DNA of 39,243 bases, taken from NCBI GenBank assembly GCA_045655025.1, contig JAZOOM010000235.1, forward strand, positions 1-39,243, given 5' to 3'. Source of the DNA: Eubacteriales bacterium. Its GTDB lineage: Bacteria > Bacillota > Clostridia > Oscillospirales > CAG-272. Under the pieces are notes generated by a model, which saw only the letters and a program-made list of their open reading frames with translations, searched no databases and was not told the DNA's origin. The position numbers were made by a program, and so were the translations under genes. Shown in pieces: positions 1 through 39,243 of this stretch. Every line of letters begins with the position of its first letter. The first letter of the stretch is position 1.

Positions 1-1
1 G

Positions 2-1342
2 TACGAGGATCAACTGGAAAGCCAAAAGGAAGCCGAATCCCTTGATGCCATCCCCGAGACCAACGGCAACATCACGGGTAATAGCGCCCCCGATTATCAG
101 ACCCCCATCATCCTCAAAACCGGTGATACGCCCTTCTACGAGGGGAAAACCGTGGAAGAGCTGAAGGCCGTATTCCGCAGTTCCTCTACGAGGAGCGATC
201 CAACCGTGACCCCCACGGGGCGAATGTACCGCACGTACGACGAAAATATGTGGTACTACAACAAGCTCACGGGGAATTTCAGCGCGTGGTGCGCCGACCC
301 CCTCTGCAACGTGGTCGAAAACGAGAACTGTATCTGGTATGATTTCCTGTGGATCCTGTATATCAGCGACGAATACATCTACTTTCAAGCCACGGATCAC
401 CGAACCAACGACACCAAGGTGTACCGCTGCGACCACCAGAGGAACAACATTGAGGAGGTCATCGACATCGGGGAATACTACGAGCAACTGTACAAGCCCG
501 ACGGAACCTCCGGCGGGACCAGCGGAACCTACGACGATGTGGAAATACTCTCCGAGCAGGACGGTACCCTGTACTATTTTACCACGCGGATACTGACGAA
601 CGGCGACAGCGCCGGCTCTCTCTACGCCATGGATATCAAAACCAAGGAGGCTACCCTTCTGTCGGGAGAGCGGGATATCGATCTGGTGCAAATGGTGGGG
701 GACACCGTGTACTATACTCAGTCTCCCATGACCTATACCTGGTACAAGACCGACCTGTCCTTTGCTGACTCCACCCTCATGTGGGAAAACGTGAGCATTA
801 CCCAGAAAAATGACAGGTATTTCATTATTGGCAGATGGAAGGACGGATTCCTCGACACGTCCTTTTCCTATAATCTGCAAACGGGTGAGAGCCATGAGCT
901 GAGCCGAGGGGGCGGCTGTCTGTCGGGGAACTATCTCTACTATACACGAAAGCTCACCGACGAGGAGGTGGAAGGTGACCCCCACAAGGAATACTATACC
1001 TACACCTGGGAGGAGGAAAGCCCCCGCCCCGGCGGGAAGCCCATCACCAAAGAGAGCGACACCCGCGGCGCGGGAAAGATCTACCGCGTCTACGTGGGTG
1101 CCGACTACGCCCCCGAGGAATGCGTGTGCCAGCTTACCTACAAGGGAGTACCCGTCCGCCTGAAGAATATCGAGGCCGACGGCGAGGTGATCTATATCTC
1201 CTTCAACAACTATGAGGGATTTACCAATTTCTATAACCCCGACATTGACGACGGGGACGGGTACACCGCCCTCTGCTACGGCGCTGTGGATCTGCAAAAC
1301 GGAAGCGTGACCATATTGGAGCTGCCCGAAAATATGGAATAA
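2..1342 (+). CDS. Cell-surface propeller-like lipoprotein, subfamily A (paralog A1); 5' end outside window
   Basis: Frame 2 is open from base 2 to TAA at 1340-1342, so the track start at 152 is an internal GTG. Bases 2-150 translate to YEDQLESQKEAESLDAIPETNGNITGNSAPDY, colinear with the region just after the lipobox of paralog A3 (11596..12987). Family motifs: YYNKLTGNFSAWCADPLC...CIW, YRCDHQRNN, DPHKEYYTYTW, GKIYRVY, FNNYEGFTNFYNPD. About six [ILV]Y[YF]...Yxx(D) repeats. Confidence 0.9.
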   Translation, partial: YEDQLESQKEAESLDAIPETNGNITGNSAPDYQTPIILKTGDTPFYEGKTVEELKAVFRSSSTRSDPTVTPTGRMYRTYDENMWYYNKLTGNFSAWCADPLCNVVENENCIWYDFLWILYISDEYIYFQATDHRTNDTKVYRCDHQRNNIEEVIDIGEYYEQLYKPDGTSGGTSGTYDDVEILSEQDGTLYYFTTRILTNGDSAGSLYAMDIKTKEATLLSGERDIDLVQMVGDTVYYTQSPMTYTWYKTDLSFADSTLMWENVSITQKNDRYFIIGRWKDGFLDTSFSYNLQTGESHELSRGGGCLSGNYLYYTRKLTDEEVEGDPHKEYYTYTWEEESPRPGGKPITKESDTRGAGKIYRVYVGADYAPEECVCQLTYKGVPVRLKNIEADGEVIYISFNNYEGFTNFYNPDIDDGDGYTALCYGAVDLQNGSVTILELPENME

Positions 1343-2932: not shown

Positions 2933-2955
2933 GTCGCTCATTCGTAACAGTAAAG

Positions 2956-2986: not shown

Positions 2987-2993
2987 GCGCATC

Positions 2994-3042: not shown

Positions 3043-3156
3043 AAAGCCAAACCTAAAAAGGCGGAGAATTTTTGCGACCTTCCTAAAAAGTTCCACACTT
3101 TCTTCGTCATAATAAGTAGAGGGGTCTTTACACTACGCAAGGGAAGGAGCATAGCC

Positions 3157-5041: not shown

Positions 5042-5060
5042 ACAGCAAAGGAGAAGAATC

Positions 5061-6386: not shown

Positions 6387-6395
6387 GGTGAAACC

Positions 6396-12990: not shown

Positions 12991-15312
12991 ATGTTCAGAT
13001 ACGAATGTAAAAAACTCATCAGCAACAAATTCATCCTCGGCCTGTTCATCCTCCTGTTCCTCCTGAATGCCCTTCTATCCTACTCCGAGGCCAAGCATGA
13101 CCCCGCAACCGATCTGTCAGAGGATGTGTTGGTTGCTCTGGAGGCCTACAACGACGACCCCGAGGCGTGGAAGGTTGAGTATGCGCGCCTGGAGACCTAC
13201 TATAACGAGGTCTTTTACCCCAAGGTACAGCAGGAAATGCAGGAATTCCTTGAGAAGAATCCTAATGCGAACGGTTATACTTGGGAGCTGGACGAGGATG
13301 CTCAAAAATATCAGAATTATTTTTGGGCAGAGCGATTCATGGCCGAGATCGACTCCTACCCCAAGGACTTGAAGCGCGTTGTTAAAGCCGCCATCATTGC
13401 CAAGGAGGACTACCTCGCCTCGGGCGTGACCGAGAACGACTACGAATACAAATATCAGTCCGATATCGAGCGCATCTACGAGATCAACTCCCTCATTCCC
13501 ATCGACTACGAATACGCCGTGGGCTGGGATGAATACCACGCCTACACCAGCGGCAACGTCCTCTTGGTCATGCTCATGCTGGTGCTGGCTCCCGGTCTGT
13601 GCATCGAGGAATTCTCCTCGGGGATGTACCCCATCCTCCACGCCACCAAGAAGGGGCGTTTGCACACCTTCCTCAACAAACTGGGCGCGCTGGCTCTGTT
13701 CACCACCCTTGCCGTGGTGCTGTTCACCGCCACCACGTTGGTATTCTACGGCGCAAGCTACGGATTCTCCTCCCTCGGCAACTTCGTCCAGGTATTTGAG
13801 GACTTCAAGTTCTGCCCCGAGATCATCACCGTGGGCGAGCTACTGGCTGTGTCGGTGCTGACCAAGATTCTGGTGCTGTTCGCGCTGGGCACCCTTATCA
13901 TGCTGCTTTCGGTGTTCATCAAGAAGTACGCCCTGACCTTTGTGGCCTCCCTTGGCGCGGTGGCGGTCAACTTCGTGTTGTACTTCTTCATCTCCCTGGA
14001 ACAGACGGGCTCTTTTGATATGCTCAACCTGTTCACGGTCATGGACACCAAGACCGCCTACACGCGGTACTACTCCCTCAACGTGTTTGAGGAATCCGTG
14101 CCCTATATTCCGCTGTCCATCGGCCTGTTCGCTGTCCTTGCCGTAGTCTTCGCCGCCCTGTCTGCTTTCGCCTTCTGCCGTACCCAAGGCGCAGTCAAAA
14201 TCAAGACCAAGAAGCCCATCAAGCTCCCCGCAAGAGCCATCCCCATGCCCTGTCGCACCCTGTTCGGCGCGGAGATGGGTAAGCTCCTGTTGGCCATTAA
14301 GTTCATCATCATCGTGGCTATCGTCCTGCTGGCCAAGGGCTTTATCGCCACAGAGACCTTTACTTATACCGAATCCTTTACGGACAGCGTGTACAAGGAA
14401 TACATGACCACCCTCTCTGGCGAGCTGACCGAGGAAAAGCTGGCTTACATGGAGGCGGAACGCAACCGCATCGACACCGCCAAGAACGGCTTCAATCAAG
14501 CCGTGGCCGATTACCACCAGGGCAAGATCACCCAGCAGGAATACCTCGCCTTCGTGGACGAATACGACTACGCCAAGGATCGCGACAGCCATTTCGCCCG
14601 CATTGAAAACCGCCGCGACTACATCCTGTCCGTCCAAGCCGCCGGAAAGGACGCCTACTTCGTATACGATACAGGCTGGAACACCCTGTTCTCCCAAGGC
14701 TTTGACTACCTGCTCTACGGGCTCGTCCTGCTCCTGTTTGCGGGCGTGTTCGCCAATGAGATCCGCGGCGGTATCCACAATATCCTCAAAGCCACGGGCA
14801 AGGGCAGATGGCGTCTGTTCCTCACCAAGTATGCGGCTGTGCTGACTTTGGCAACCATTCTGTTTGCCGCATTTACGGCTATTAATCTGAACGCCGCCAT
14901 GAAATCCTTTGAGTTCCCCGCGTGGGATGCGCCTGTTCAGAGCCTCACCATGTTCGGAAGTCAGCCGAGCATGACCGTGGCGCAGTTCGTCGCCCTCTGG
15001 ATCGCCGTCAAGTGGCTGGCTGTCGTTCTGCTCGTCACCGCTCTCACGGGAATCTCTCTCCTGTCTGGTAAGGTGCTCAACACCATGGCTATCGTCGCCA
15101 CCGTCACTCTCATGCCCTTCCTGCTCCGCCGCTTCGGTCTGGTAGTGGCGCAGTATTTCGACTTTACCTATCTGCTGGAGGGTACGAGCTTCCTCACAAC
15201 GGCGGCAAGTTCCAGACTTTATCTCACGCTCACGGTTGCAGTTCTCGCCGCCGCTATCACGATCCTCACATGGCTTGCCAAACAGATGTGGGTGGGCCGT
15301 AAACACCATTAA
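12991..15312 (+). CDS. Fused ABC-2-type transporter permease (Perm2)
   Basis: 773 aa, MFRYECKKLISNKF. Starts 3 nt after the A3 stop, with AAGGAGGAG upstream. Same two-half architecture as Perm1 (EEFSSGMYPILHATKKG / NEIRGGIHNILKATGKG). Confidence 0.85.
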   Translation: MFRYECKKLISNKFILGLFILLFLLNALLSYSEAKHDPATDLSEDVLVALEAYNDDPEAWKVEYARLETYYNEVFYPKVQQEMQEFLEKNPNANGYTWELDEDAQKYQNYFWAERFMAEIDSYPKDLKRVVKAAIIAKEDYLASGVTENDYEYKYQSDIERIYEINSLIPIDYEYAVGWDEYHAYTSGNVLLVMLMLVLAPGLCIEEFSSGMYPILHATKKGRLHTFLNKLGALALFTTLAVVLFTATTLVFYGASYGFSSLGNFVQVFEDFKFCPEIITVGELLAVSVLTKILVLFALGTLIMLLSVFIKKYALTFVASLGAVAVNFVLYFFISLEQTGSFDMLNLFTVMDTKTAYTRYYSLNVFEESVPYIPLSIGLFAVLAVVFAALSAFAFCRTQGAVKIKTKKPIKLPARAIPMPCRTLFGAEMGKLLLAIKFIIIVAIVLLAKGFIATETFTYTESFTDSVYKEYMTTLSGELTEEKLAYMEAERNRIDTAKNGFNQAVADYHQGKITQQEYLAFVDEYDYAKDRDSHFARIENRRDYILSVQAAGKDAYFVYDTGWNTLFSQGFDYLLYGLVLLLFAGVFANEIRGGIHNILKATGKGRWRLFLTKYAAVLTLATILFAAFTAINLNAAMKSFEFPAWDAPVQSLTMFGSQPSMTVAQFVALWIAVKWLAVVLLVTALTGISLLSGKVLNTMAIVATVTLMPFLLRRFGLVVAQYFDFTYLLEGTSFLTTAASSRLYLTLTVAVLAAAITILTWLAKQMWVGRKHH

Positions 15313-15329: not shown

Positions 15330-16193
15330 ATGCTCACCATCAACAATCTTTCCAAATCCTACGGCTCCAACCTCGCCCTCAATCAGTTCACCTACACCTT
15401 CGACCACGGCATCTACGCCCTGTTGGGCCCCAACGGCTCGGGCAAGTCTACGCTTATGAACATCGTCACCCAGAACCTCAAATCCGACAACGGTGAGATT
15501 CTGTTGGACGATACCCCCATCGGCAAGCTGGGTGCATCCTACCGCGAAAAGCTGGGTTTTATGCCCCAGTATCCCGGTATGTACCCCTCTTTCTCGGCTC
15601 TCGACTTCCTCCGCTATATGGCCGTGCTGAAGGGGCTGAACAAAAAGAAAGCCGATGAGCAGATCGACGAGCTTTTGCACGCCGTGGAGCTTCACGACGT
15701 GAGAACCCACCGTATCGGTTCTTTCTCGGGCGGTATGAAGCAACGCCTTGCCCTGGCTCAATCTCTGCTCGGTGACCCCGAAATCGTCATTCTTGACGAA
15801 CCCACAGCCGGTCTTGACCCCAAGCAGAGAATCGCCATCCGTAATTACATAGCCAGCGTAGCCCTCAATAAGACTGTCATTATTGCCACTCACGTAGTTT
15901 CCGATGTGGAGTTTATCGCCCGTGAGGCCATCATGCTCAAAAAAGGCGTGATCTCGGACAGCGGAAGTCCCTACGAGCTGACTCAGAAGATCGAGGGCCA
16001 GGTCTGGCAGACCGTGGTAGCCGCCGAGGAGGTACAGGCTATGCAGGAAAAGTTCCGCGTGGTCAACATCCAGAACGGTGAGCAGGGGGTGATTCTGCGC
16101 ATTTTGTCCGATGTGAAGCCCACCGAGGATTCCGTGACCGTGGTGCCGTCCTTGGAGGATTACTATCTCTACGTGTTCGGGGATATCCTCTGA
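15330..16193 (+). CDS. ABC transporter ATP-binding protein (ATPase1)
   Basis: Walker A GPNGSGKST, Q-loop MPQ, signature FSGGMKQRLALA, Walker B IVILDEPTAGLD, H-loop IATH. By my alignment it has 6 amino-acid differences from 21797..22660. Confidence 0.95.
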   Translation: MLTINNLSKSYGSNLALNQFTYTFDHGIYALLGPNGSGKSTLMNIVTQNLKSDNGEILLDDTPIGKLGASYREKLGFMPQYPGMYPSFSALDFLRYMAVLKGLNKKKADEQIDELLHAVELHDVRTHRIGSFSGGMKQRLALAQSLLGDPEIVILDEPTAGLDPKQRIAIRNYIASVALNKTVIIATHVVSDVEFIAREAIMLKKGVISDSGSPYELTQKIEGQVWQTVVAAEEVQAMQEKFRVVNIQNGEQGVILRILSDVKPTEDSVTVVPSLEDYYLYVFGDIL

Positions 16194-16243: not shown

Positions 16244-17014
16244 TTAGGAATGGTTATCCAAGTTTTTCAGCACCATCAGGGTGGTAAAGACCCGATCCTC
16301 GCAGGAAAATACCAGCTCTCCCTTGTACTTACGCACTAAAGCACGCATGGTGGGGATTCCCAATCCGTGCCGTTCGGGGGAGCCCTTGGCGGTCTCCAGA
16401 CGTTGAATATCCACGTCCCGCAACACCGCGTTTTTCACTAGGATCACCAACGTCTCGTGCTTGACCGTCACCGTCACCGATACCCACCGCGCTCCCTCGT
16501 TCGGGATCCTTGCCGCCGCCTCAATGGCGTTGTCCAGGGCGTTTCCCAGCAGGATGGCCAGATCCACGTAAGGCACCGTCACCGAGGGGAGCTTGTGGGC
16601 GTGATACTCCCACCCGATGCCCTTGTCCCGTGCTAACGCCGCTTTGGTGTTGATGAGGGTGGTGATAAGATCGTTTTCCCCCGTCACCAGACGGATCTCC
16701 CCCAGCCGTTCCAGCTCGGCCTCCACCGAGGCGATCGCCTCGGCTGTGTTTCCCTGCGAGAGGGTCGCCAGCAGCCCCATAAGGAAATGCCGCTGATCGT
16801 GCTGCATTTTCAGAAGATCCCGATGGTTGTCCATGATGAGGCGGTACTGCTCGGCCTGGGTGGCCGCCGTCTCCCGCGCTTTTTTATCTCGCGCATCCCT
16901 GAGCCGTTCCCGCTCCTTCCGTAAACGGAGGGTGGACACCAGCACCCATGAAAGAAGCAGCAGGAGCAACAGCGACAGTCCCGCCGCCAAGATCCAGAAT
17001 ATGGGCTTTTCCAT
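16244..17014 (-). CDS. Single-TM GHKL sensor histidine kinase (AgrC/LytS-like HPK10 core, no obvious sensor domain)
   Basis: One N-terminal TM (IFWILAAGLSLLLLLLLSWVLV), a charged helical linker, H-box QHDQRHFLMGL, N-box LLGNALDNAIEA, G-box GLGIPTMRALV. ATG 17014 overlaps the RR stop (TGATG). GTG 17017 is the alternative start. Confidence 0.85.
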   Translation of the reverse strand: MEKPIFWILAAGLSLLLLLLLSWVLVSTLRLRKERERLRDARDKKARETAATQAEQYRLIMDNHRDLLKMQHDQRHFLMGLLATLSQGNTAEAIASVEAELERLGEIRLVTGENDLITTLINTKAALARDKGIGWEYHAHKLPSVTVPYVDLAILLGNALDNAIEAAARIPNEGARWVSVTVTVKHETLVILVKNAVLRDVDIQRLETAKGSPERHGLGIPTMRALVRKYKGELVFSCEDRVFTTLMVLKNLDNHS

Positions 17015-17718
17015 CACGAATACCTCTCCACGTAGCCGGCATAGGCCAGAAGCACCTCGGATTTCTTCCGTACGCTCATCATGACCCGCTCGCCGTTCTG
17101 TAGGATCACATCGTAGCCATCGAACTCGGATACCTTGTCCAGATTGACAATATACCCTTGATGCACCTGATAAAAGCCGTAATCCCGCAGAGCCTCCATG
17201 GCATCGGATAGCCGCCCCAGGGTATCATAGACCCGATCGGCGGTGTGGTACAGGATGTGCTTGCGGTTGCATTCCACGTAGAAAATATCGTGGACGGGCA
17301 GACGGATGGACTGTCCCCCCACGCGGATGACGTGGTAGCGGTGGAGCATACGGTACTTGTCGGAAGCCCGCTCCAGAATGCGGTGCACCTTCTCCAGGGT
17401 ACAGGGCTTCAGTATGTAGTGAAAGGCCTCGCAGTCGTAGGCCTCGATGGCATACTGTGGAAATCCCGTGGCGAAAATGAGGATGGCGGCCGCATCCAAC
17501 TCACGGATGCGCTGTCCCACCTCCAGCCCCGTGAGCCCGGGCATTTCCACGTCCAAAAACAGAATATCGAAGCGCTCGCCCCGATCGTAGGCGTCCAATA
17601 GGGATCGACCCGAGGTGAACACGGCGACCTCGGGGGACAGCTCGGGGTCAAAGCGTCGGCACAGCCCCGCCAGCATCTCCCCGTCGGTAGAAGCGTCGTC
17701 ACATACAGCAATTCTCAT
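17014..17718 (-). CDS. LytTR-family response regulator
   Basis: REC domain (IAVCDD, FLDVEMPG, ILKP) plus a C-terminal LytTR domain (IFYVE...FYQVHQGYIVNLDKV). I moved the start to ATG 17718, which has GGGAGAG 7 nt upstream. The track start at 17760 sits on the predicted -10 element. Confidence 0.88.
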   Translation of the reverse strand: MRIAVCDDASTDGEMLAGLCRRFDPELSPEVAVFTSGRSLLDAYDRGERFDILFLDVEMPGLTGLEVGQRIRELDAAAILIFATGFPQYAIEAYDCEAFHYILKPCTLEKVHRILERASDKYRMLHRYHVIRVGGQSIRLPVHDIFYVECNRKHILYHTADRVYDTLGRLSDAMEALRDYGFYQVHQGYIVNLDKVSEFDGYDVILQNGERVMMSVRKKSEVLLAYAGYVERYS

Positions 17719-17748
17719 GGTCATACTCTCCCATTTTAAGATAACACC

Positions 17749-17777
17749 ATTATACCACATTCCGTGGCTTTTGTAAA
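17749..17777 (-). promoter_or_regulatory. Sigma-A-type promoter of the LytTR RR-kinase operon
   Basis: Read on the minus strand: TTTACA (17777..17772), a 17-nt spacer, then extended -10 TGgTATAAT (17757..17749). Confidence 0.65.
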
Positions 17778-20905: not shown

Positions 20906-21781
20906 ATGCTCACCGTAAAAAAGATCATAAAATCCTACCGCCGCTTCCGCCGTATCACTCCTGCCCTGGAGCCCTTCTCCTATACCTTTGACCACGGCCT
21001 GTACGGGATCCTGGGCCCCAACGGGGCGGGAAAATCTACCCTCCTGTCGATTCTCGCCCGCAATCTGCGTCCAGACGATGGGCAGGTGCTTCTGGATGGG
21101 AAGGACGTGCGATCACGCAAGACCTGCTACCCCGCTCGATTGGGCTATCTGCCCCAGAACGGCGGAGGCTACCCCGACGTCTCGGCGGAGGATTTTCTGC
21201 GCTACGTCGCCGTCTCCAAGGGCGCGAGCCGCACCGAGGCAGAAGCCCAGAGCCACGCCATCCTGCGGGATATTGACCTGTATGACTGCCGTCATGACCG
21301 CGTCGCCTCCTTTTCGGGGGGCACCGTGAGTCGCCTTTTGCTGGCGCAGGCCTTTATGGGCAACCCCGAGGTGGTCATTTTAGACGAGCCCACCGCCTCC
21401 ATGGACCCCGCCTGGCGTGCCTGCGCCCGCAAGCTCATGGCCAGAGAAGCCCAAAACCGCACCGTTCTGCTGGCGACCCACATCGTATCCGACGTGGAAT
21501 CCGCCGCCCGTGAGGTACTGCTGCTCCGCCGCGGACGGCTGGTGGATTCGGGGACACCCTTCGAGCTGACCGAAAAGGTACGGGGACGGGTCTGGGGGAT
21601 CACGGTCTACCCCGAGGAGGTGCCAACCTTCACGGCACGCTTCCGTATCGCCGCCATGACCAACACGAAAGAGGGGGTTACCCTCCGCATCCTCTCCAAC
21701 CGTCGTCCCGCCCCCGAGGCCGTGGCGGTTGACCCCAATCTGGAGGACTACTACCTGTGCTTCACAGGGGAACTCTTGTAA
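20906..21781 (+). CDS. ABC transporter ATP-binding protein with degenerate signature motif (ATPase2)
   Basis: Walker A GPNGAGKST, Q-loop LPQ, Walker B VVILDEPTASMD, H-loop LATH. The signature region reads FSGGTVSRLLLA, where the paralogs have FSGGMKQRLALA. Confidence 0.9.
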   Translation: MLTVKKIIKSYRRFRRITPALEPFSYTFDHGLYGILGPNGAGKSTLLSILARNLRPDDGQVLLDGKDVRSRKTCYPARLGYLPQNGGGYPDVSAEDFLRYVAVSKGASRTEAEAQSHAILRDIDLYDCRHDRVASFSGGTVSRLLLAQAFMGNPEVVILDEPTASMDPAWRACARKLMAREAQNRTVLLATHIVSDVESAAREVLLLRRGRLVDSGTPFELTEKVRGRVWGITVYPEEVPTFTARFRIAAMTNTKEGVTLRILSNRRPAPEAVAVDPNLEDYYLCFTGELL

Positions 21782-21796: not shown

Positions 21797-22660
21797 ATGC
21801 TCACCATCCGCGATCTATCCAAATCCTATGGCTCCAATCTCGCCCTCAACCGGTTCACCTACAGCTTTGACCACGGCATCTACGCCCTCCTGGGCCCCAA
21901 TGGCTCGGGAAAATCCACTCTCATGAACATCGTCACCCAGAACCTCAAATCCGACAACGGTGAGATTCTGTTGGACGATACCCCCATTGGCAAGCTGGGC
22001 GCGTCCTACCGCGAAAAGCTGGGGTTCATGCCTCAGTACCCCGGTATGTACCCCTCCTTTTCGGCTCTGGATTTCCTCCGTTACATGGCCGTATTGAAGG
22101 GGCTGAACAAAAAGAAAGCGGATGAGCAGATCGACGAGCTTCTGCACGCCGTGGAGCTTCACGACGTCCGCACCCACCGTATCGGCTCATTTTCGGGCGG
22201 TATGAAGCAGCGTCTTGCCCTTGCCCAAGCTCTGCTCGGTGACCCCGAGATCGTCATTCTTGACGAACCCACCGCCGGTCTTGACCCCAAACAGAGAATT
22301 GCTATCCGTAATTACATAGCCAGCGTAGCCCTCAATAAGACTGTCATTATTGCCACTCACGTAGTTTCCGATGTGGAGTTTATCGCACGCGAGGCCATCA
22401 TGCTCAAAAAGGGCGTGATCTCGGACAGCGGAAGTCCCTACGAGCTGACTCAGAAGATCGAGGGTCAGGTGTGGCAGACGGTCGTAGCCGCCGAGGAAGT
22501 CCAGGCCATGCAGGAAAAGTTCCGCGTGGTTAACATCCAGAACGGCGAGCAGGGTGTGATTCTGCGTATCCTGTCCGACGTGAAGCCCACCGAGGATTCC
22601 GTGACGGTGGTGCCTTCTCTGGAGGATTACTACCTCCACGTGTTCGGAGATATTCTGTAA
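21797..22660 (+). CDS. ABC transporter ATP-binding protein (ATPase3), near-identical paralog of ATPase1
   Basis: Canonical Walker A/B, signature, Q- and H-loops. 287 aa. Differs from 15330..16193 at 6 residues but at many synonymous sites. Confidence 0.95.
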   Translation: MLTIRDLSKSYGSNLALNRFTYSFDHGIYALLGPNGSGKSTLMNIVTQNLKSDNGEILLDDTPIGKLGASYREKLGFMPQYPGMYPSFSALDFLRYMAVLKGLNKKKADEQIDELLHAVELHDVRTHRIGSFSGGMKQRLALAQALLGDPEIVILDEPTAGLDPKQRIAIRNYIASVALNKTVIIATHVVSDVEFIAREAIMLKKGVISDSGSPYELTQKIEGQVWQTVVAAEEVQAMQEKFRVVNIQNGEQGVILRILSDVKPTEDSVTVVPSLEDYYLHVFGDIL

Positions 22661-24227: not shown

Positions 24228-26633
24228 ATGCTCCGCTATGAAATCAAAAAGATCCTCGGCAACCGCTTCGTCGTATTCTTCTTCCTCCTCATGTTTGCCG
24301 TCAATGCCGTCCTGTCGGCGGTCTCGGTCATGAGCATTCCGGCCTCCCCCGAGACAGACCTGTCCGCCGAGGAGCTGGCCGCCATTGAGGAGATCTTTGC
24401 CCGCTACGAGGAGGATCCCGAGGCATTTCTCACCGAAATGGACACTCTGTACGCCTACTCCCAAAGGCTGACTGAGGTGCAGGTGCAGATGACCATGGAT
24501 GCCATGATGAACGGGGTGGATCTGTCCACCCTGTCCATTCAGGACTACTGGCCTGAGTACAACGATGAAATTTGGGAGAAGATCCAGGAATACAACGGTA
24601 CCTACCGCTACTTCCGCAACGTCAAGAACTACATAGACGTCACCCGCATCGAAAAGTACGATGAGGTCATCGCCCGCGCCGAGGCCGCCAAGATCGAGTA
24701 CGTGGCCTTCGGCATGAGCGAGAACAGCTACGACTACCGCTATCAGGATGACGTCATCGACATTTACACCGTGGGCAAATACGTCCCCTTGGAGATCGAA
24801 CGGGACATTGGCTGGAACCACTATTTCGCCTACGCCGACGGCAATATCTGTCTGATTCTGTTCCTGCTTGTCCTCGTCCCGGGACTTTTGTTGGACGAAA
24901 AGAAGAACGGCACCTACCCTATCATCCGCGCCACCAAGTTGGGACGGCTCTCCACCATGCTGGCCAAGCTCGCGGCCATGCTGTCGGTGATCGTCATCGC
25001 CGTGCTGACCTTCTCGGTCACCACCCTGATCCTGTTCGGTGCAGAGTTCGGCTACTCGTCTCTGTCCAACTACATTCAGATCTTTGACGATTACCTGTTC
25101 TGCCCCTACATCGTCACCGTAGGTGAGTATCTGGGTCTGTCCCTGCTCATCAAGATCCTGACCCTGTTCGCGTTGGGGACAGTCATCCTCACCGCCTCCT
25201 TCTTGCTCCGCAACTACGCCCTGACCTACCTTACGGGGCTTGTCATCGGCGGCGTAAACTTCTTTGTCTACTTCACCGACTATCTGGATATCAACAGCCC
25301 CCTGCGCCTGCTCAATATCTTCACCATCATGGACGCCGAGGTCTGCTTCTCCCGCTACTACGCCATCAACGTCTTCGGCCGCTGTCTGCCCTACCTCACC
25401 GCCATTTTCCTGTTCATGGGGCTGATCGCGGTGATCTTCGGTGTCTGGGCGACCCTGCTCTACTGCCGCTCGGCGGGTGGACGCTCGTTGCGGAAGGGCA
25501 AAAAGCTCTTTAAGATCCCCAACGTGGCTCTGCCCTGCTTCATCCCCGGCTTTGCGGGCTTTGAACTGCACAAGGTGCTGTTCGCGGGCAAGTATATCCT
25601 GCTCATTCTCGCCATTCTGCTGGTCAAGGGCTACCAGATCCGCACCACCGATCCCGTCAACTACTCCTTCTCGGATACCCTCTACAAGGAGTACATGGCC
25701 ATGCTGGAGGGTGAAGTTACTCAGGAAAAGCTGGACTTCATCACCGACGAGCGTGCCGAGATCGACACCATCCGAGGCATGGAGAAGGAGATGGAGGCCA
25801 ACTACCGCGACGGCCTCATTACCTACGACGAGTACGTGGAGTACCAAGGACAGCTGGAGGACGCCAAGGCCAGAGACGAGGTGTTCAAGGTCGTGGAAGC
25901 CCGCAGAGATTACCTGCTGGAACAGATCGAGGCGGGTCACGATGCCCATTTCGTATATTCCACGGGCTGGAACCAGATGTTCGGGCGGGGCTTTGACTAC
26001 CTGCTTTACATCTTCGCCTTGGTGTTCGGCGCTATGCTCTTTACCACCGAGTACAGCGCTGGGGTATCGGGCATCCTCCGCGCCACCAAGCGGGGACGGG
26101 GGGAACTGTTCGCTACCAAGTATGTTATCGCCGTGGTCGCCTGCGCGCTTATGGCCATTGTTTGCGGCTATCTTGATCACACCAAGCTTACCGAGCTGTA
26201 CACCTTCGCCTCGGCTACGTCTCCTGTCCAGAGCCTCCCCATCCTTGGCGGCATCGGCTGGGATATGACCATCCACCAGTATCTCATGCTCTTTGAGACC
26301 CTCCGCGTGGTGGGTGTGGTGCTACTGGGCTTCATCACCGTGGCGGTGTCCGTCCTCTCCAAGAAGTCTGTCAACACCATGGCCACCGTCGCCCTTGTGA
26401 CGGTTGTCCCCTTCGTGTTCCGCCGCTTCGGGCTGGACTTCGCCCGCTATTTCGATTTCACCACCCTCCTGTCGGGTCACGAATACCTCACCCAATCGGC
26501 GGGCTCGGCTCTCTATTTCGTTCTGTTCACCGCCGTCGTCCTCGCGGTCTGTGCCGTACTGTTTGCGGTCAGCTTGGGACAATGGGTGGGATTCCGCCGA
26601 AGAGTACCCGGAAAGGAAAGGAGGATGCACTGA
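24228..26633 (+). CDS. Fused ABC-2-type transporter permease (Perm3)
   Basis: 801 aa, MLRYEIKKILGNRF. Two-half architecture (LLDEKKNGTYPIIRATKLG / TTEYSAGVSGILRATKRG), with about 6 hydrophobic segments per half. Confidence 0.85.
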   Translation: MLRYEIKKILGNRFVVFFFLLMFAVNAVLSAVSVMSIPASPETDLSAEELAAIEEIFARYEEDPEAFLTEMDTLYAYSQRLTEVQVQMTMDAMMNGVDLSTLSIQDYWPEYNDEIWEKIQEYNGTYRYFRNVKNYIDVTRIEKYDEVIARAEAAKIEYVAFGMSENSYDYRYQDDVIDIYTVGKYVPLEIERDIGWNHYFAYADGNICLILFLLVLVPGLLLDEKKNGTYPIIRATKLGRLSTMLAKLAAMLSVIVIAVLTFSVTTLILFGAEFGYSSLSNYIQIFDDYLFCPYIVTVGEYLGLSLLIKILTLFALGTVILTASFLLRNYALTYLTGLVIGGVNFFVYFTDYLDINSPLRLLNIFTIMDAEVCFSRYYAINVFGRCLPYLTAIFLFMGLIAVIFGVWATLLYCRSAGGRSLRKGKKLFKIPNVALPCFIPGFAGFELHKVLFAGKYILLILAILLVKGYQIRTTDPVNYSFSDTLYKEYMAMLEGEVTQEKLDFITDERAEIDTIRGMEKEMEANYRDGLITYDEYVEYQGQLEDAKARDEVFKVVEARRDYLLEQIEAGHDAHFVYSTGWNQMFGRGFDYLLYIFALVFGAMLFTTEYSAGVSGILRATKRGRGELFATKYVIAVVACALMAIVCGYLDHTKLTELYTFASATSPVQSLPILGGIGWDMTIHQYLMLFETLRVVGVVLLGFITVAVSVLSKKSVNTMATVALVTVVPFVFRRFGLDFARYFDFTTLLSGHEYLTQSAGSALYFVLFTAVVLAVCAVLFAVSLGQWVGFRRRVPGKERRMH

Positions 26634-26634: not shown

Positions 26635-27876
26635 ATGAAACACTACATGAAACTAATCGCTATTCTTGCGGTTCTGTTCACCATGCTCGCCCTTACCGCT
26701 TGCCAAACGGGTATGCCCACAGAGGGCGAGACCAAGCCCGCCTTTGTCAATCCCCACGCCATCGAGCAAAGCGATTGCCTCGTTCACACCTTGGAAAATG
26801 AGGTTTGCACTACCTGCGGCTGGGAATACCAAGTCTCCGATGGCTTGGAGATCGGCATCGACGAGTACAGCGGTCAATACCTCGTCCTTGGCCGCGGGGA
26901 ATGCACCGACACCCAGATCTATCTCCCCACCACCCACGAGGGAAACACCGTCATGGGTGTCGCCATCGGGGCGTTTACGGGGGACGAGACCCTGACCCAC
27001 GTGGTGATCCCCGAGGGCATGACCGTTCTGGGAGACTCCGCTTTCAGCCGTTGCTCCAAGCTGGTTTCGGTAGAGCTTCCGTCAACCGTCCAGACCCTCA
27101 ACCGCGCCTTGTTTGAGGGCTGCTTCCGCCTCACGGACGTTGAACTCCCCGAAGGCATCACGTCCATTCCCGATTCCTTGTTCTCGGGCTGTTCCTCCCT
27201 CAAAAGCATCACCATCCCCTCCACCGTCACGAATCTCCACGGATGGGCCTTCAAAAAATGCCTGCGCCTTACCGAGATCACCATCCCCGAGGGGGTGACC
27301 GAGATCGGCAACGGTGCCTTTGAGGGCTGCCGTGACCTGACCACCCTGTACCTTCCCAAGACCCTCACCACCCTCAACGGATCCACCTTCAAGGACTGCG
27401 AATCCTTGACGGACGTTCACTACAGCGGCACCCTTGCCCAGTGGTGTAGCGTGCGGATCGACTTCCAGGATGCCAGCCCCACCATGCTCGCGGAGAATTT
27501 CTACGTGGACGGCGCACGGATCGAAGGAGACATTACCCTCCCCGAGGGTATCATTACCATTGGCAGTTACACGCTGGCAGGACTCCGCAACGTCACTTCC
27601 GTGACCGTCCCCGCCTCGGTGGCTTCTATTGGCGACAACGCCTTCAAGAACTGCGAAAAGCTTGCCTACCTCGTCTTGCAGGGCTCCACCCACGCGGGCA
27701 GTAACCCCTTCCCGAACACGGCGGTCAAGCACATCTACCTCACCGACACCCGCGAGGACGCCCTTTCCTACATCGCCTACTGGGCGGGTGCCTGCAAGTC
27801 GGCAGGGGCGGAGTTCCATTACGGCGATGCTTGGGAGTATGACGAGAACGGTGTGCCGCGGCTGAAAGAAGAATGA
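26635..27876 (+). CDS. BspA-type leucine-rich-repeat lipoprotein (LRR2)
   Basis: The track start at 26404 lies inside Perm3 in another frame. ATG 26635 follows GGAAAGGAGG and begins MKHYMKLIAILAVLFTMLALTAC (lipobox). C-x2-H-x6-C-x2-C cluster (CLVHTLENEVCTTC). LRR_5-like repeats (ITIPSTVTNLHGWAFKKCLRLTEITIPEGVTEIGNGAFEGC). Confidence 0.88.
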   Translation: MKHYMKLIAILAVLFTMLALTACQTGMPTEGETKPAFVNPHAIEQSDCLVHTLENEVCTTCGWEYQVSDGLEIGIDEYSGQYLVLGRGECTDTQIYLPTTHEGNTVMGVAIGAFTGDETLTHVVIPEGMTVLGDSAFSRCSKLVSVELPSTVQTLNRALFEGCFRLTDVELPEGITSIPDSLFSGCSSLKSITIPSTVTNLHGWAFKKCLRLTEITIPEGVTEIGNGAFEGCRDLTTLYLPKTLTTLNGSTFKDCESLTDVHYSGTLAQWCSVRIDFQDASPTMLAENFYVDGARIEGDITLPEGIITIGSYTLAGLRNVTSVTVPASVASIGDNAFKNCEKLAYLVLQGSTHAGSNPFPNTAVKHIYLTDTREDALSYIAYWAGACKSAGAEFHYGDAWEYDENGVPRLKEE

Positions 27877-35374: not shown

Positions 35375-35397
35375 GAGGATTTGGCCCTGTGATAAAA

Positions 35398-35449
35398 AGA
35401 GCCGACTTGAGGTAGGCCATCCTACTGACAAGCCGGCTCTGTCGTTTTT
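35398..35449 (+). terminator. Probable terminator after A4
   Basis: 12-bp stem AGAGCCGACTTG / CAAGCCGGCTCT (one mismatch) around a 19-nt loop. TTTTT starts 4 nt after the stem. It is less canonical than the other terminators. Confidence 0.5.
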
Positions 35450-35570
35450 CGTGATCCATGCCCCTTTTTACGAAAAAAATGAGAAATATTTTTCAAAAAC
35501 GACGGTTTCCCGTTTTCGGTTCCGTCTTTATCAGTGAAGGGGGCGGTAACAGGAAGGGAGGCGCGGTCAA

Positions 35571-36137
35571 TTGAAGGATGATGGGATCATCGAGCTGTTG
35601 CAAAGCCGTGATGAGAAGGCCATCGAAATGACGGCGGAACGGTACGGACGTTACTGTATGCAGATCGCCATGAATATTCTGCACAATGAATGGGACGCGG
35701 AGGAATGTGTGAACGATGCCTATCTTCGCTTGTGGAACAGCATCCCGCCCGCGCGCCCGAAAGTCCTGCGGGCATTTCTCGGGCGGATCGTGCGGAATCT
35801 GTCCATTGACCGCCACCGCTCTATCCACCGCGCGGGCTACAACAGCGATCTGGAGGTGTCTCTGGAGGGCTTGATGGAGGAGCTGGGGGACTGTATTCCG
35901 AGCGATGATGAGGTCCCCGGCTCGGTGCTGGAGGCATTACCCGGGCTGTTTGACGGTTTTCTGGAGAAGGAGACCGAGCTGAACCGCAAGCTGTTCGTGG
36001 GCCGGTATTGGCATGGCTACAGCATGGTTGTACTGGCGGAGGGCTATGGGATTTCCGAGGATGCGGTAGACGGACGGTTGCGGCGGATTCGGGAGCGGTT
36101 GCGGAATTATCTGGAAGAGAGGGGGATTCGAATATGA
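35571..36137 (+). CDS. ECF-sized sigma-70 family sigma factor (sigma 2)
   Basis: TTG start with GGGAGG about 9 nt upstream. Region 2-like DAEECVNDAYLRLWNSIPPARP...RNLSIDRHR. Region 4-like VVLAEGYGISEDAVDGRLRRIRERLR. Paralog of 3157..3735. Confidence 0.8.
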   Translation: MKDDGIIELLQSRDEKAIEMTAERYGRYCMQIAMNILHNEWDAEECVNDAYLRLWNSIPPARPKVLRAFLGRIVRNLSIDRHRSIHRAGYNSDLEVSLEGLMEELGDCIPSDDEVPGSVLEALPGLFDGFLEKETELNRKLFVGRYWHGYSMVVLAEGYGISEDAVDGRLRRIRERLRNYLEERGIRI

Positions 36138-37495
36138 GGAGAACCAACTATGAGGCTTATAAGCAGCTCAGCGGTATACGGGACGATTACATCACCGAAG
36201 CCGAGCTGCCCATGGCATATGTGAAAAGAAGCATGAGGCGCAGGCGGCTGAAAAACAGACTCAGCCGTGTGGTGCAAAGCAACTGGTTTGTTGCCGCTGT
36301 ATGCACCATTGTATCCTTGAGCACGGTCTCTTGGATCGCATATATGGGGCAGAGGATACCCACGGAGGTTCCCCCGCCTTATGGCAGTATGCAGGAGAGC
36401 ACCGCCACGCAGTATGGCGATCAGGATCCTATGATCTTGTATGCCAATCCCTACGAGGGCATGAGCCGGGAGGAGCTGTATGAGCTCTACGCAAGACAGG
36501 AGACCGCCATTTCCCGGGCCGTGACGGATCATGCCAACAGACAGTACCAAACCCCGTACTACGTGTTTGTGAGCGACACGGAAAAAGAAGCCCGTGTATT
36601 TAATAAGCTGACGGGAAAATATGAGAGCATTTGCAAGATAGAGGGGTGTGAACACACCAATCCGGAGGACTGTCCCGCCACGTATACGAAAGGCCTTGTT
36701 CCGGGTTCATTACGGGTGGCGAACGACTGCGTCTACGCGATTCTGGACACCGGGCAAGGTGAGCAGGCTCTGTTTACCTTCGATTTGGATCTGACTAATC
36801 CGCAGATGCGGGGAGCGTACACATCACCGTCTCCCTTGGTTATGGCCTATCGGAATCTCCTTGTGGCTAACGGCACCATCTACGATGTGTGTATGAGCAT
36901 TACCCCTAAAGACGGCCGATTCCATTTTGATTCGGCGCGCTTCATCGTTGAAAATGGGGATATACAGGAGTTTGCGAGCATGATCTCCCACATACGGGAC
37001 GGGGCGCTTTTGTACTTTTCTACCCATGAAGGAATTATGCAAGCGAACCTGCAAACGGGAGAGATCGTCACTCTGCTCTCTGCCGCAGAGCTGGGGTATG
37101 AGGTCTACGATCTCCCGGAACGGGACAGCAGCAGCGGATATCCACTGCTCACCGCCTTGAAAAACGGCCGATTGTATATCGAAACCGTCACGGTCACGGG
37201 AGAGAGCCGTTACTGTACCTTGACGCTGGACACCATGACTCTTGATCCGTATATACCCGCTTGGGAGGAGACCGCGCCCGAATCGTTCCTTGTTTACGAC
37301 GGGACTGCCTACATGGTGAAGCAGGGCGTTGTTTATGCCACACCGTTGGATGGGGCTGACACCAAAATGGTCGCCCGCCTCCCCGATGGGCGGGCGTGTA
37401 TCCTTGTTTCCTGTGATGGCAGGATCCTGTATGCGGAAACCGAAACTCATATTCTGATGATTGAGTTGGAAACAGGAAAGATTTATATTCCATAA
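36134..37495 (+). CDS. Putative anti-sigma factor whose extracytoplasmic domain belongs to the propeller-lipoprotein family (anti-sigma 2)
   Basis: ATG 36134 overlaps the sigma 2 stop (ATGA). The track start at 36008 is inside sigma 2. About 50-aa cytoplasmic part, then a TM (WFVAAVCTIVSLSTVSWIAYMG). Family motifs follow: ANPYEGMSREELYELY, TPYYVFV, FNKLTGKYESICKIEGCEHTNPEDC, FTFDLDLTNP, C-terminal DGRILYAE...IELETGKIY. Confidence 0.75.
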   Translation: MRRTNYEAYKQLSGIRDDYITEAELPMAYVKRSMRRRRLKNRLSRVVQSNWFVAAVCTIVSLSTVSWIAYMGQRIPTEVPPPYGSMQESTATQYGDQDPMILYANPYEGMSREELYELYARQETAISRAVTDHANRQYQTPYYVFVSDTEKEARVFNKLTGKYESICKIEGCEHTNPEDCPATYTKGLVPGSLRVANDCVYAILDTGQGEQALFTFDLDLTNPQMRGAYTSPSPLVMAYRNLLVANGTIYDVCMSITPKDGRFHFDSARFIVENGDIQEFASMISHIRDGALLYFSTHEGIMQANLQTGEIVTLLSAAELGYEVYDLPERDSSSGYPLLTALKNGRLYIETVTVTGESRYCTLTLDTMTLDPYIPAWEETAPESFLVYDGTAYMVKQGVVYATPLDGADTKMVARLPDGRACILVSCDGRILYAETETHILMIELETGKIYIP

Positions 37496-37522
37496 TGAAA
37501 TAACCGCGAAAGGGGCGATCTC

Positions 37523-39243
37523 ATGATCCGATACGAAATCAAAAAGCTGTTTGGCAACAAATTCATCCCCATTTTCTTTGTCATCATGTTCGCCTTGAAC
37601 CTACTGCTATCCTACTACGCCGCCCCTCGCTCACGGGGTGAGCTGAACCTGCATTCCGAGCTGGATGCGGAGACCCAGGCCATTGTGGATGAAATGTACG
37701 CACGCTACGAGGCGAATCCCGAGACGTTCATGGAAGAATTCTCAAGCTGTCGGGCGTACTATCTGACATCCATCGAAATGACCTCTCTGGTGACCGAGAA
37801 GAACATGGAAGCCATGATGCGGGGCGAGGAGGGCAACTACACCATACAGGATTTTTGGCCAGAATATAACGAGGAAATTCAAGCCAAGGTGGATCTTTAT
37901 TTCAATACCTATCGGTATTTCTACCGCGTCAGTGGATACGTCACGGAGGAGTACCCCGCGCTTCTGAAGAGTGTGATCGACAACGCCAAGCTGTTTCAGG
38001 AGGAATACCTGGCCTACGGCATGAGCGCGGACAGCTACGAATACCACTACCAGAGCGACGTGATCGACGTTTACTCCGTAAACAAGAATCTGCCCATTCG
38101 CTTTGAGGATCGCAAGGGGTGGGATATGTATTTCACCTATACCGACGGCAATATCTGTATGCTGCTATTCATCCTCGTCCTCATCCCGGGACTTCTGCTG
38201 GATGAGAAAAAGAACGGCACCTTTCCCATTCTCCGCGCCACGAAACAAGGACAGTTGGCTCTGATCGTCACCAAATACATAGCCCTGCTGCTGGTCTCTG
38301 CCGCTTCCGTCCTGCTGTTCAGCGGAGCCACGTGGATCATTTTCGGATTGGAAAGCGGCGGGTATTCCTCTCTCTCCAACTTCGCGCAGATCTTTGAGGT
38401 GAACGTGTACTGCCCGTACATCGTCACGGTGGGTGAATATCTCGGTTTGACCCTGCTCATCAAAATACTCTCCCTGTTCTCGGTGGGCTCTCTGCTCATG
38501 ACGGTTTCCTTGTTGGTCAAGAATCACGCTCTCAGCTACCTTGCGGGGCTGATCTTCGGAGGGGCAAACTTCGCCGTCCACTTCACGGATTTTCTGGACA
38601 CGGATCATCCTCTCCGCCTACTCAACATCTTCACCGTCATGGATACCGAGGTGTGCTTCACCCGTTACCATGCCATCAATATGTTCGGGCGGTGTCTGCC
38701 CTATTTGTCCGCTATTTTCCTCTTTTTCGGTCTGCTTTTGGCCTGTACCGCCGTGGCGACGGGACTGCTTTACTGTCGTACCCCCGGTGTTCATAAGGTA
38801 CGGCGGAGGAAGTCGCGGAGCAAGCGGGCGATATTCACCAAGGCCATCCCGTGCCCCGTGCGTCTCATGGGCGTGTACGAGCTGCACAAGCATTTGGTGG
38901 CGGGAAAATGGCTACTCCTGATCCTGGCCGTCCTGCTGGTCAAGGGCTATACGGTGTACACCACCGAATCGGTGGCGTACTCCTTTTCGGACGCGGTCTA
39001 CCGGGACTACATGGAGCTTTTGGCGGGAGAAGTCACCGACGCCAAGCTTGCCTACATGGAGGACGAGCGCGCCTATCTGGACAGCATCCTTTCCTCCGAG
39101 GAAATCATGAAGGAGGAGTACGCGAGCAAGGAGATCTCCTTTGCCGAATACATGGAATACCAGGACGAGCTGGATACGGCAAAGGCCAAAGACCCCATTT
39201 TCGTGTCCGTGGAAGCCCAGCGGGATCACCTGCTTGCCTTGCG
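37523..39243 (+). CDS. Fused ABC-2-type transporter permease (Perm4); 3' end outside window
   Basis: Absent from the supplied ORF track because there is no stop codon in the window. ATG 37523 has GAAAGGGG upstream. My translation MIRYEIKKLFGNKFIPIFF... stays open to the window end and is colinear with Perm3 (LLDEKKNGTFPILRATKQG vs LLDEKKNGTYPIIRATKLG; second half begins YELHKHLVAGKW). Confidence 0.85.
   Translation, partial: MIRYEIKKLFGNKFIPIFFVIMFALNLLLSYYAAPRSRGELNLHSELDAETQAIVDEMYARYEANPETFMEEFSSCRAYYLTSIEMTSLVTEKNMEAMMRGEEGNYTIQDFWPEYNEEIQAKVDLYFNTYRYFYRVSGYVTEEYPALLKSVIDNAKLFQEEYLAYGMSADSYEYHYQSDVIDVYSVNKNLPIRFEDRKGWDMYFTYTDGNICMLLFILVLIPGLLLDEKKNGTFPILRATKQGQLALIVTKYIALLLVSAASVLLFSGATWIIFGLESGGYSSLSNFAQIFEVNVYCPYIVTVGEYLGLTLLIKILSLFSVGSLLMTVSLLVKNHALSYLAGLIFGGANFAVHFTDFLDTDHPLRLLNIFTVMDTEVCFTRYHAINMFGRCLPYLSAIFLFFGLLLACTAVATGLLYCRTPGVHKVRRRKSRSKRAIFTKAIPCPVRLMGVYELHKHLVAGKWLLLILAVLLVKGYTVYTTESVAYSFSDAVYRDYMELLAGEVTDAKLAYMEDERAYLDSILSSEEIMKEEYASKEISFAEYMEYQDELDTAKAKDPIFVSVEAQRDHLLAL

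Follow-up and report, generated by a model that had tools for sequence, protein, structure and literature searches.

The stretch of DNA analysed here (39,243 nt; hereafter the window) comes from an uncultured ruminant-gut Clostridia bacterium and holds a dense, plus-strand cluster in which one uncharacterised family of lipoproteins is encoded many times over. Near its end, directly behind a gene for a sigma factor (sigma 2), lies a gene for a single-pass membrane protein, anti-sigma-like protein 2 (anti2). An earlier note on this DNA had proposed that anti2 uses a member of the lipoprotein family as its extracytoplasmic domain, so that a fold displayed in many free copies would also be wired to a transcription factor. 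This raises the question of whether the ectodomain truly belongs to the family, whether anti2 regulates its neighbouring sigma factor, and which output such a circuit would control. We found that the ectodomain is homologous to the lipoproteins of the window, and that the cytoplasmic and membrane part of anti2 is a module that recurs next to one subgroup of sigma factors. We consider it probable (probability about 0.68) that anti2 regulates sigma 2 as its cognate partner in the membrane, and that it probably does so as an anti-sigma factor, with a propeller as its sensor and its own operon as its output. Overall, the earlier interpretation was borne out in its description of the architecture and in pairing anti2 with sigma 2, whereas the upstream array of C-type paralogs as the regulated output was not.

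The anti2 gene overlaps a sigma factor gene and encodes a predicted single-pass membrane protein

Sigma 2 is a sigma factor of the extracytoplasmic function (ECF) type, with matches to TIGR02937 (E-value 2e-17; 63.2 bits at a cut-off of 42.9), Sigma70_r2 (6.8e-12) and Sigma70_r4 (4e-4). Its best matches in the PDB were SigW, SigL and SigE, SigW being the closest solved structure (1e-5), and it is 43% identical to sigma 1, the second ECF-type sigma factor of the window; each of the two sigma genes is followed by a gene for a single-pass membrane protein. The ATG of anti2 (36134) overlaps the TGA of sigma 2 in an ATGA, positions 36129-36140 reading cgaatATGAgg. The translational coupling that had been proposed from this overlap holds up, and the overlap is also present in the orthologs.

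A single hydrophobic segment was found in anti2 by hydropathy analysis. The 49 residues before the transmembrane (TM) helix contain 13 Lys/Arg and 5 Asp/Glu, while the 32 residues after it contain 1 Lys/Arg and 4 Asp/Glu, and this positive-inside charge distribution places the N terminus in the cytoplasm. We thereby recovered the order that the earlier note had described, namely a short, basic cytoplasmic segment of 49 amino acids (aa), one TM helix at aa 50-72 and an ectodomain. Anti2 has no lipobox and is anchored by the internal TM helix behind its cytoplasmic segment.

The AlphaFold2 (AF2) model of anti2 (mean predicted local distance difference test, pLDDT, 75; predicted template-modelling score, pTM, 0.69) begins with low-confidence cytoplasmic helices, placed at residues 5-11, 18-23 and 27-48 of the N-module (aa 1-49). 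These are followed by the TM helix, a disordered linker at residues 73-97, a helical subdomain with a small sheet, and about six four-stranded blades, so that the ectodomain is predicted to be a beta-propeller. The pLDDT of the blades is mostly 72-95, with dips to 58 near aa 231-240 and 271-280, and the linker region (aa 73-104) is the least conserved part of the protein among orthologs. For comparison, the AF2 model of the lipoprotein C1 mostly exceeds a pLDDT of 90 at aa ~130-330 and reaches 83-89 over most of the rest. A Foldseek search with the anti2 model returned generic beta-propellers only, among them tetrathionate hydrolase (5e-9), the YWTD propellers of LDLR/LRP, prolyl-oligopeptidase propellers, EUBREC_1955 (PDB 3s25) and the sensor propellers of Bacteroides hybrid two-component systems (HTCS). 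The C1 model gave the same kinds of match, including tetrathionate hydrolase and 3s25, and neither Foldseek search yielded a functional lead.

The ectodomain is a diverged member of the lipoprotein family

The family comprises 13 members in the window, of the A type (four), the B type (two) and the C type (seven). The count of 13 free copies given in the earlier note is thus right, with the qualification that the first A-type gene is incomplete at the window start and that the two B-type proteins are TM-anchored and lack a lipobox; the C-type proteins are lipoproteins. In the databases the family amounts to 62 clusters, all annotated as hypothetical and confined to uncultured gut and rumen Clostridia. 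It has no Pfam entry, and scans of the A, B and C proteins against Pfam and NCBIfam gave nothing significant.

The motifs on which the family assignment had been based are all present in anti2 and follow one another as described: NPYEGMSREELYELY (aa 105-119), TPYYVFV (aa 140-146), FNKLTGKYESICKIEGCEHTNPEDC (aa 156-180), FTFDLDLTNP (aa 214-223), DGRILYAE (aa 428-435) and IELETG (aa 443-448). The assignment itself, for which pairwise and profile alignments had been suggested as a check, was confirmed by both, with a similarity far above chance. BLASTP of anti2 against the seven C paralogs gave E-values of 1e-11 to 2e-15 at 23-33% identity, the alignment with C1 spanning aa 76-451. In hhalign, a profile of the anti2 orthologs matched the C profile with a probability of 99.1% (E-value 1e-18, 264 columns) and the B profile with a probability of 95.6% (E-value 1e-8); the direct match to the A profile was weak, and the A, B, C and downstream D types all match one common hidden Markov model (HMM) strongly. 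Scored with an HMM built from lipoproteins only, with the query lineage excluded, the ectodomain reached 101 bits, while the best of 1000 residue shuffles reached 9.5 bits. The ectodomain is therefore homologous to the lipoproteins of the window, and this is genuine homology.

The likeness is distributed unevenly along the protein. In the HMM alignment, aa 96-395 of anti2 correspond to HMM positions 63-339 of 465, and it is in the N-terminal subdomain that anti2 and the lipoproteins share their best-conserved columns and that the hhalign identities cluster. This subdomain carries the family motifs NPYEG, TPYY, (N/S)KLTG and a Cys/His motif, and thirteen of its residues (P106, Y107, T140, P141, Y142, Y143, K158, L159, T160, C167, C172, H174 and C180) occupy columns that are invariant or at least 90% conserved. 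The C-terminal family motifs DDPHYEYY, TDGIPD and YQTYKDFxNxYN are absent from the alignment of anti2, as is the family's lipoprotein signal peptide, in which the lipobox cysteine is followed by (S/N)RRD. The C-terminal stretch from DGRILYAE to IELETG, which had been listed among the family motifs, does occur in anti2, but its resemblance to the family is weak, since the HMM match stops before it and the signature motifs are missing. With the N-terminal subdomain kept and the C-terminal signature motifs lost, the ectodomain is a diverged and shortened member of the family and not a full copy. It is about equally distant from the C and D types (23-33% identity) and hence no recent copy of any one paralog.

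The Cys/His motif, C-x4-C-x-H-x(2-5)-C, directly follows NKLTG and is nearly invariant across the lipoprotein family and present in anti2 (36632-36673, C167 to C180); its equivalents in C1 (17915-19381) are C156, C161, H163 and C166. The motif could bind a metal outside the cytoplasm or form a disulfide knot.

The second membrane protein of this kind in the window, anti1, showed no detectable similarity to the lipoprotein family. Within the window, the statement that the anti1 ectodomain is unrelated and that the fusion is specific to the second pair is therefore correct.

The cytoplasmic and TM segments recur as a module paired with one sigma subgroup

Comparisons were made with 16 fetched loci (L001-L016) and with database homologs, designated by P-numbers such as P0032 and P0041; contigs orthologous to the window derive from RGIG metagenome-assembled genomes (MAGs) of roe deer, goat and water deer. 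HMMER, run exhaustively with the ortholog profile over 1.84 billion representative proteins, returned 52 matches, of which 17 covered the ectodomain only and were lipoproteins of the family. Another 31 were restricted to aa ~1-95 and belonged to proteins of 102-708 aa with other C-terminal regions, and the remaining four were the ortholog P0032, P0041 and the long multi-stretch matches P0068 and P0077. Leaving aside P0068 and P0077, no recognisable member of another propeller family was among the 52. A word-indexed search with the anti2 protein found only orthologs of at least 55% identity, and one with the N-module profile gave just two matches and was uninformative.

The module shared by these proteins has the consensus M-x(8-12)-I-(R/S)-D-x-Y-I-x-E-A, followed by a basic stretch and S-G-W-x-V-A-A-V-C-A-x-V-S-L-S-V-L-x-x-I-x-W-A-G-x(3)-P. 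In its TM segment, W51, A54, V60 and G72 are invariant or nearly so among 25 module members. Among the orthologs of anti2, conservation is highest in the cytoplasmic and TM segments; compared with P0032, to which anti2 is 55% identical overall, the TM segment is 83% and the propeller 52% identical.

The ectodomains behind the module vary and include BspA-type leucine-rich repeats (LRR), unknown folds and one further propeller fusion. At least seven module proteins from other gut Clostridia carry BspA-type LRR ectodomains similar to the free LRR lipoproteins of the window (Table 1), so that both kinds of surface protein of the cluster, beta-propeller and LRR, recur as module ectodomains. The search for further instances of the same fusion, also suggested earlier, was run and gave one further case, P0041 (502 aa), the only other protein that joins the module to a propeller of the family. 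P0041 lacks the Cys/His motif. In L008 its gene follows an ABC (ATP-binding cassette) ATPase fragment (1-564), the readable stretch of which is by eye close to atp1 of the window, and is followed (2934-5968) by genes for a 388-aa membrane protein, a MoxR-type AAA ATPase and a DUF58 protein, a context unlike that of the window.

Nine sigma/module pairs were compared, which represent eight loci or sets of orthologs (the window together with its orthologs L001-L007; L008; L009; L012, with two pairs; L013; L014; L015; L016). In 9/9 the gene in front of the module gene encodes an ECF-type sigma factor 42-68% identical to sigma 2, and the two genes overlap at the sigma stop codon (GTGATG in L009). 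The cytoplasmic and TM part (~75 aa) is thus a separate family, which in all pairs compared is coupled to one subgroup of ECF sigma factors while its ectodomains are interchangeable. The idea that module proteins generally have an ectodomain paralogous to the neighbouring gene products was considered and rejected, as the neighbours in L009, L014, L015 and L008 are unlike the partner's ectodomain.

In L012 (6010-11592), two sigma/N-module cassettes stand in tandem, one with an LRR ectodomain and the other with a 736-aa protein without a recorded Pfam domain. This arrangement shows that the cassette was duplicated locally and that its ectodomain was replaced.

Neither anti2 nor the N-module had a Pfam or NCBIfam match, and a profile of 25 N-modules matched no PDB sequence below an E-value of 0.3. 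Scanned one by one against Pfam, the 25 module members gave a single marginal DUF4179 match (E-value 0.088) and no consistent family. At 49 aa the N-module is too short to be a four-helix class I anti-sigma domain. By sequence, anti2 thus contains neither a described anti-sigma domain nor RsgI_N, and it departs from the lipoprotein family in lacking the lipobox and the C-terminal motifs. We therefore regard it as the union of two new families, an anti-sigma-like module and a beta-propeller of which anti2 carries a diverged member.

The genes downstream of anti2 as the probable output

The sigma 2 unit is set apart from the upstream array by a strong terminator hairpin and a promoter-like box of its own (Table 1). 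The RNA hairpin folds with a free energy of -25.7 kcal/mol (z-score -4.47), and none of 200 shuffles folded as well; a generic scan for sigma-70 promoters and terminators had missed this long-loop terminator, which folding confirmed. The box (35503-35527; CGGTTTcccgttttcggttcCGTCT) is a putative autoregulated promoter of the ECF type. The pattern CGGTTT-N12-15-CGTC has this single match in the window, with 0.38 expected per window by chance, and its CGTCT form occurs once each in 10 of the 16 fetched loci. In L001 and L009 the box precedes the sigma gene by 40-70 nt, L009 being one of three loci (L009-L011) with a sigma factor that is 68% identical to sigma 2 and partners P0033; the other orthologous loci have it at corresponding positions. 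A related promoter-like box, GTTCC-N10-CGTCA (3090-3109), lies equally far from the start codon of sigma 1.

One promoter consensus common to the sigma subgroup was rejected, because the -35 element differs between CGGTTT (sigma 2 and the P0033-partner sigma) and (A)GTTCC/GATTCC (sigma 1 and L012); the -10 part, CGTC(T/A), is the only element that the promoter-like boxes of the subgroup have in common. The loose pattern GTTyC-N-CGTCW was used as a pointer only, because it also occurs inside genes.

The genes downstream of anti2 are closely packed. After a gap of 27 nt follows a permease gene with about ten hydrophobic segments in the 573 aa that lie within the window. The orthologous locus L001 extends further and has the order sigma 2, sensor, 796-aa ABC2_membrane_3 permease, LRR_5 lipoprotein and three lipoproteins of the family (475, 467 and 471 aa). 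From this gene arrangement, the regulated output is likely the downstream operon, comprising the ABC-2 permease, the LRR lipoprotein and the three family lipoproteins. The earlier suggestion that the output could be the paralog array itself is unlikely to apply to the upstream C array, from which the terminator and the promoter-like box separate sigma 2.

The window contains two modules of comparable gene order, namely sigma 1, anti1, B1 and permease (module 1; 3157-8786) and sigma 2, anti2 and permease (module 2; 35571-39243). Anti2 thus occupies the place of anti1 plus B1, and one may speculate that it arose by fusion of an anti1-like with a B-type gene; the ectodomain of anti2 resembles the C and D types more than the B type, which counts against such an origin.

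A model for anti2 as regulator of sigma 2

If anti2 is the cognate regulator of sigma 2, the basic cytoplasmic N-module would hold sigma 2 at the membrane, and the TM helix and flexible linker would join it to the extracytoplasmic propeller, which would have been recruited from the lipoprotein family of the locus and have diverged since. A ligand or a change at the cell surface, sensed by the propeller, would then lead to the release of sigma 2. By analogy to other single-pass anti-sigma factors, and since the TM helix is rich in small residues and conserved whatever the genomic context, release may occur by regulated intramembrane proteolysis. Free sigma 2 would transcribe its own operon from CGGTTT-N14-CGTCT, that is, sigma 2, the sensor, the ABC-2 permease, the BspA-LRR lipoprotein and the three family lipoproteins. 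In this model the homology, the predicted fold, the topology, the strict coupling of the module to one sigma subgroup and the gene order come from the sequence analysis, while the binding and inhibition of sigma 2 by anti2, use of the predicted promoter by sigma 2, the mechanism of release, and the existence and nature of a ligand are inferred. The free lipoproteins might, as the earlier note suggested, be co-receptors, decoys or competitors for the same ligand class, which is likewise hypothetical. That anti2 is a cognate sigma partner rather than a passive anchor is suggested by the recurrent 49-aa module, the nine overlaps in nine pairs and the higher conservation of the module relative to the ectodomain.

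In its working principle anti2 resembles the single-pass ECF anti-sigma factors, and in its modular design the SigI/RsgI systems by which cellulolytic clostridia sense polysaccharides. The extracellular modules of RsgI proteins belong to types (CBM3, PA14, GH-like) that also occur among the cellulosomal proteins under their control, and both systems draw the sensor domain from an effector family. The SigI/RsgI systems of Clostridium thermocellum and its relatives further share with anti2 multiple paralogous cassettes, a short sigma-binding N-terminal part, one TM helix and interchangeable sensors (PMC10328401, PMC6582324, PMC6056542). Unlike SigI, however, sigma 2 is an ECF sigma factor (regions 2 and 4), the linker of anti2 is disordered and lacks a SEAL-like autoproteolytic domain, and the sensor is a predicted beta-propeller and not a carbohydrate-binding module; Pfam scans of anti2 and the N-modules gave no RsgI_N match at E-values up to 0.1-1.

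A closer likeness in architecture is found in Thermoanaerobacter tengcongensis, where Tt-TolB (TTE0322), with a 39-aa N terminus, one TM helix and a TolB-type ectodomain, binds and inhibits Tt-RpoE1 (TTE0323), a sigma factor of the ECF type, through its N terminus (PMC3397946). Tt-RpoE1 regulates its own expression, and a CGTC -10 element has been demonstrated experimentally at a spacing of N16 (PMC3397946). Tt-RpoE1 and sigma 2 are both Clostridia ECF sigma factors with the gene of the membrane protein adjacent downstream, and both membrane proteins combine a short N terminus (39 aa there, 49 aa here) with a single TM helix and an ectodomain of large size. The promoter-like box of sigma 2 also contains CGTC as its putative -10 element, at a spacing of N13-14. 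The likeness is one of architecture; the Tt-TolB ectodomain is annotated from the TolB conserved domain, whereas that of anti2 is an AF2-predicted propeller, which gave no PD40/TolB Pfam match at E-values up to 0.1 and comes from an uncharacterised multi-copy lipoprotein family. Literature searches for anti-sigma factors with a propeller or BspA-LRR ectodomain found nothing beyond Tt-TolB. Firmicutes ECF groups with DUF4179 anti-sigma factors (ECF258; RsiV-type) are comparable in having a single-pass anti-sigma factor and an association with ABC transporters (PMC7826278), but DUF4179 was not detected in the N-modules apart from the marginal match noted above. The structural matches are more remote: EUBREC_1955 (3s25) had a target-normalised Foldseek template-modelling score of 0.55 with the anti2 model and 0.62 with the C1 model, and its likeness, as that of the Bacteroides propeller sensors BT4663 and BT4673, is one of fold class only (8-14% identity, no shared motif). 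In BT4663 the propeller serves as an extracytoplasmic ligand sensor, a precedent that gives no functional inference for anti2.

Several observations weigh against anti2 as a ligand-responsive anti-sigma factor of sigma 2. Its first 22 residues have a pLDDT below 50, and no zf-HC2, RskA, DUF4179, RsgI_N or other described anti-sigma domain was found in the N-module. We also found neither a recognisable site-1 cleavage motif nor an autoproteolytic juxtamembrane domain in anti2. The promoter-like motif has a low information content, and its -35 and -10 parts lie closer together (13-14 nt) than those of Tt-RpoE1 (N16). Moreover, no ligand can be named for anti2, because the lipoprotein family has no characterised member.

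An alternative explanation is that the ectodomain reports on the machinery of its own locus by docking on permease loops or lipoprotein oligomers, with feedback by competition, so that sigma 2 activity would track the occupancy or stoichiometry of the system in a manner similar to flux sensing by transporter-coupled regulators. The ectodomain shares its family with at least 13 copies in the window and three in the same operon, the permease gene is directly next to anti2 at a gap of 27 nt, P0041 also adjoins an ABC ATPase of the same type, and the conserved motifs of the N-terminal subdomain would suit a shared binding partner. However, the most conserved C-terminal motifs of the family have been lost from the anti2 ectodomain and the Cys motif from P0041, so that shared binding surfaces are not obviously kept, and other module members have ectodomains unlike their neighbours and no adjacent ABC permease. 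Overall, we consider this explanation unlikely.

Alternatively, anti2 might be no sigma inhibitor at all but a TM-anchored structural paralog that shares the operon, or a positive co-factor or tether of sigma 2. This would fit the B-type members, which are likewise TM-anchored and not lipidated, and the fact that the N-module matches no known anti-sigma domain. It would leave unexplained why anti2 has a conserved 49-aa module where the B-type proteins have cytoplasmic tails of just 2-4 residues, why this module recurs with unrelated ectodomains and overlaps one sigma subgroup in 9/9 pairs, and why it is more conserved than the ectodomain. We hold this to be quite unlikely.

A more far-reaching idea, which we find similarly improbable, is that the anti2 ectodomain acts as a dummy subunit of the lipoprotein/ABC-2 system that competes with at least 16 free paralogs for a partner or ligand, and that the N-module is a plug-and-play anti-sigma scaffold of gut Clostridia that captures the surface folds of its neighbours. 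If so, the output of sigma 2 would measure the unoccupied partner, and a self-referential feedback would tune the size and composition of the paralog array.

Finally, a merely generic propeller resemblance with convergent repeats, as might be read from the generic Foldseek matches of both models and the identity of just 23-33%, is effectively refuted by the location of the strongest likeness in the non-repeat N-terminal subdomain (NPYEG, TPYY, NKLTG and C-x4-C-x-H-x(2-5)-C), the 101 bits against 9.5 for shuffles and the 52 HMMER matches, which, P0068 and P0077 aside, include no recognisable members of other propeller families.

With anti2 as the probable regulator of sigma 2, the protein offers an experimental handle on an uncharacterised lipoprotein family, as the copy with a link to a transcription factor can reveal what the family does. 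Any ligand or condition that activates sigma 2 would become a candidate for all the paralogs and their ABC-2 exporters. The previously undescribed sigma-partner module would extend the modular-sensor logic of SigI/RsgI to ECF sigma factors of non-cellulolytic gut Clostridia, which adds a new family and a testable circuit and does not overturn current concepts.

Other features of the window

The coordinates of the features are compiled in Table 1.

Table 1 Features of the sigma 2/anti2 unit, related features of the window and N-module proteins with an LRR ectodomain from other gut Clostridia. Positions refer to the window unless a locus is named.
Feature	Position	Strand	Remarks
ECF sigma factor 2	35571-36137	+	188 aa, TTG start
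anti2 gene	36134-37495	+	453 aa
Cytoplasmic N-module (aa 1-49)	36134..36280	+	I-R-D-x-Y-I-x-E-A motif (aa 15-24), basic stretch RRRRLKNR
Single TM helix (aa 50-72)	36281..36349	+	Hydropathy segment 51-71; AF2 helix 50-72
Juxtamembrane linker (aa 73-104), Pro-rich, acidic, disordered	36350..36445	+	pLDDT <50 for aa 73-97
Family N-terminal subdomain (aa 105-185)	36446..36688	+	NPYEG, TPYY, NKLTG, C167-x4-C172-x-H174-x5-C180
Predicted beta-propeller part (aa 186-453, ~6 blades) and stop codon	36689..37495	+	Without DPHYEYY and YQTYKDF motifs
Terminator-like hairpin and U-tract	35391..35448 (hairpin 35391-35443)	+	After A3 lipoprotein gene
ECF-type promoter-like box CGGTTT-N14-CGTCT, putative autoregulated promoter	35503..35527	+	~45-68 nt upstream of sigma 2 start
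Double ABC-2-type permease, first downstream gene of putative sigma 2 operon	37523..39243	+	Runs off window end
Paralogous pair sigma 1 / anti1	3157-3735 / 3725-5041	+	N-terminal I-x-D-x-Y-I motif as in anti2; ectodomain unrelated
B1, TM-anchored family member, after anti1	5061-6386	+	Followed by permease
ABC-2-type permeases	6396-8786, 12991-15312, 24228-26633, 37523-39243		
Free LRR lipoproteins	8809-10017 and 26635-27876		BspA-type LRR (LRR_5)
N-module with LRR_5 ectodomain (P0052, P0054, P0060, P0062, P0070, P0073, P0075)	L012 6546-8672, L016 4420-5961		Other gut Clostridia

The first A-type gene (window 1-1342) is truncated by the window start. The GTG open reading frame at 152..1342 does not mark its true start, since frame 2 is open from base 2 and can be aligned to the N-terminal part of A2.

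Three complete double ABC-2-type permeases of ~800 aa each are encoded in the window, and a fourth is cut by the window end. The one at 24228-26633, the only one scanned directly against Pfam, had no match, and the ortholog of the fourth (37523-39243) carries a precomputed ABC2_membrane_3 match. Hydropathy suggests that these ~800-aa permeases consist of two tandem ABC-2 halves with a large loop after the first TM helix of each.

The window also holds three ABC ATPases, the two BspA-type LRR lipoproteins and a minus-strand LytTR two-component pair. The ATPase genes at 15330-16193 and 21797-22660 encode proteins with 98% identity (281/287), which from sequence suggests a recent duplication or gene conversion within the cluster; the third (20906-21781) is clearly more divergent, judged by eye from the translations. 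The two-component pair (16244-17760, minus strand) consists of a response regulator of the LytTR type (17014-17760) and a short kinase-like protein (257 aa) that has one TM helix at its N terminus. Located mid-cluster and immediately upstream of the array of C paralogs, it may be a second, independent regulator of that array.

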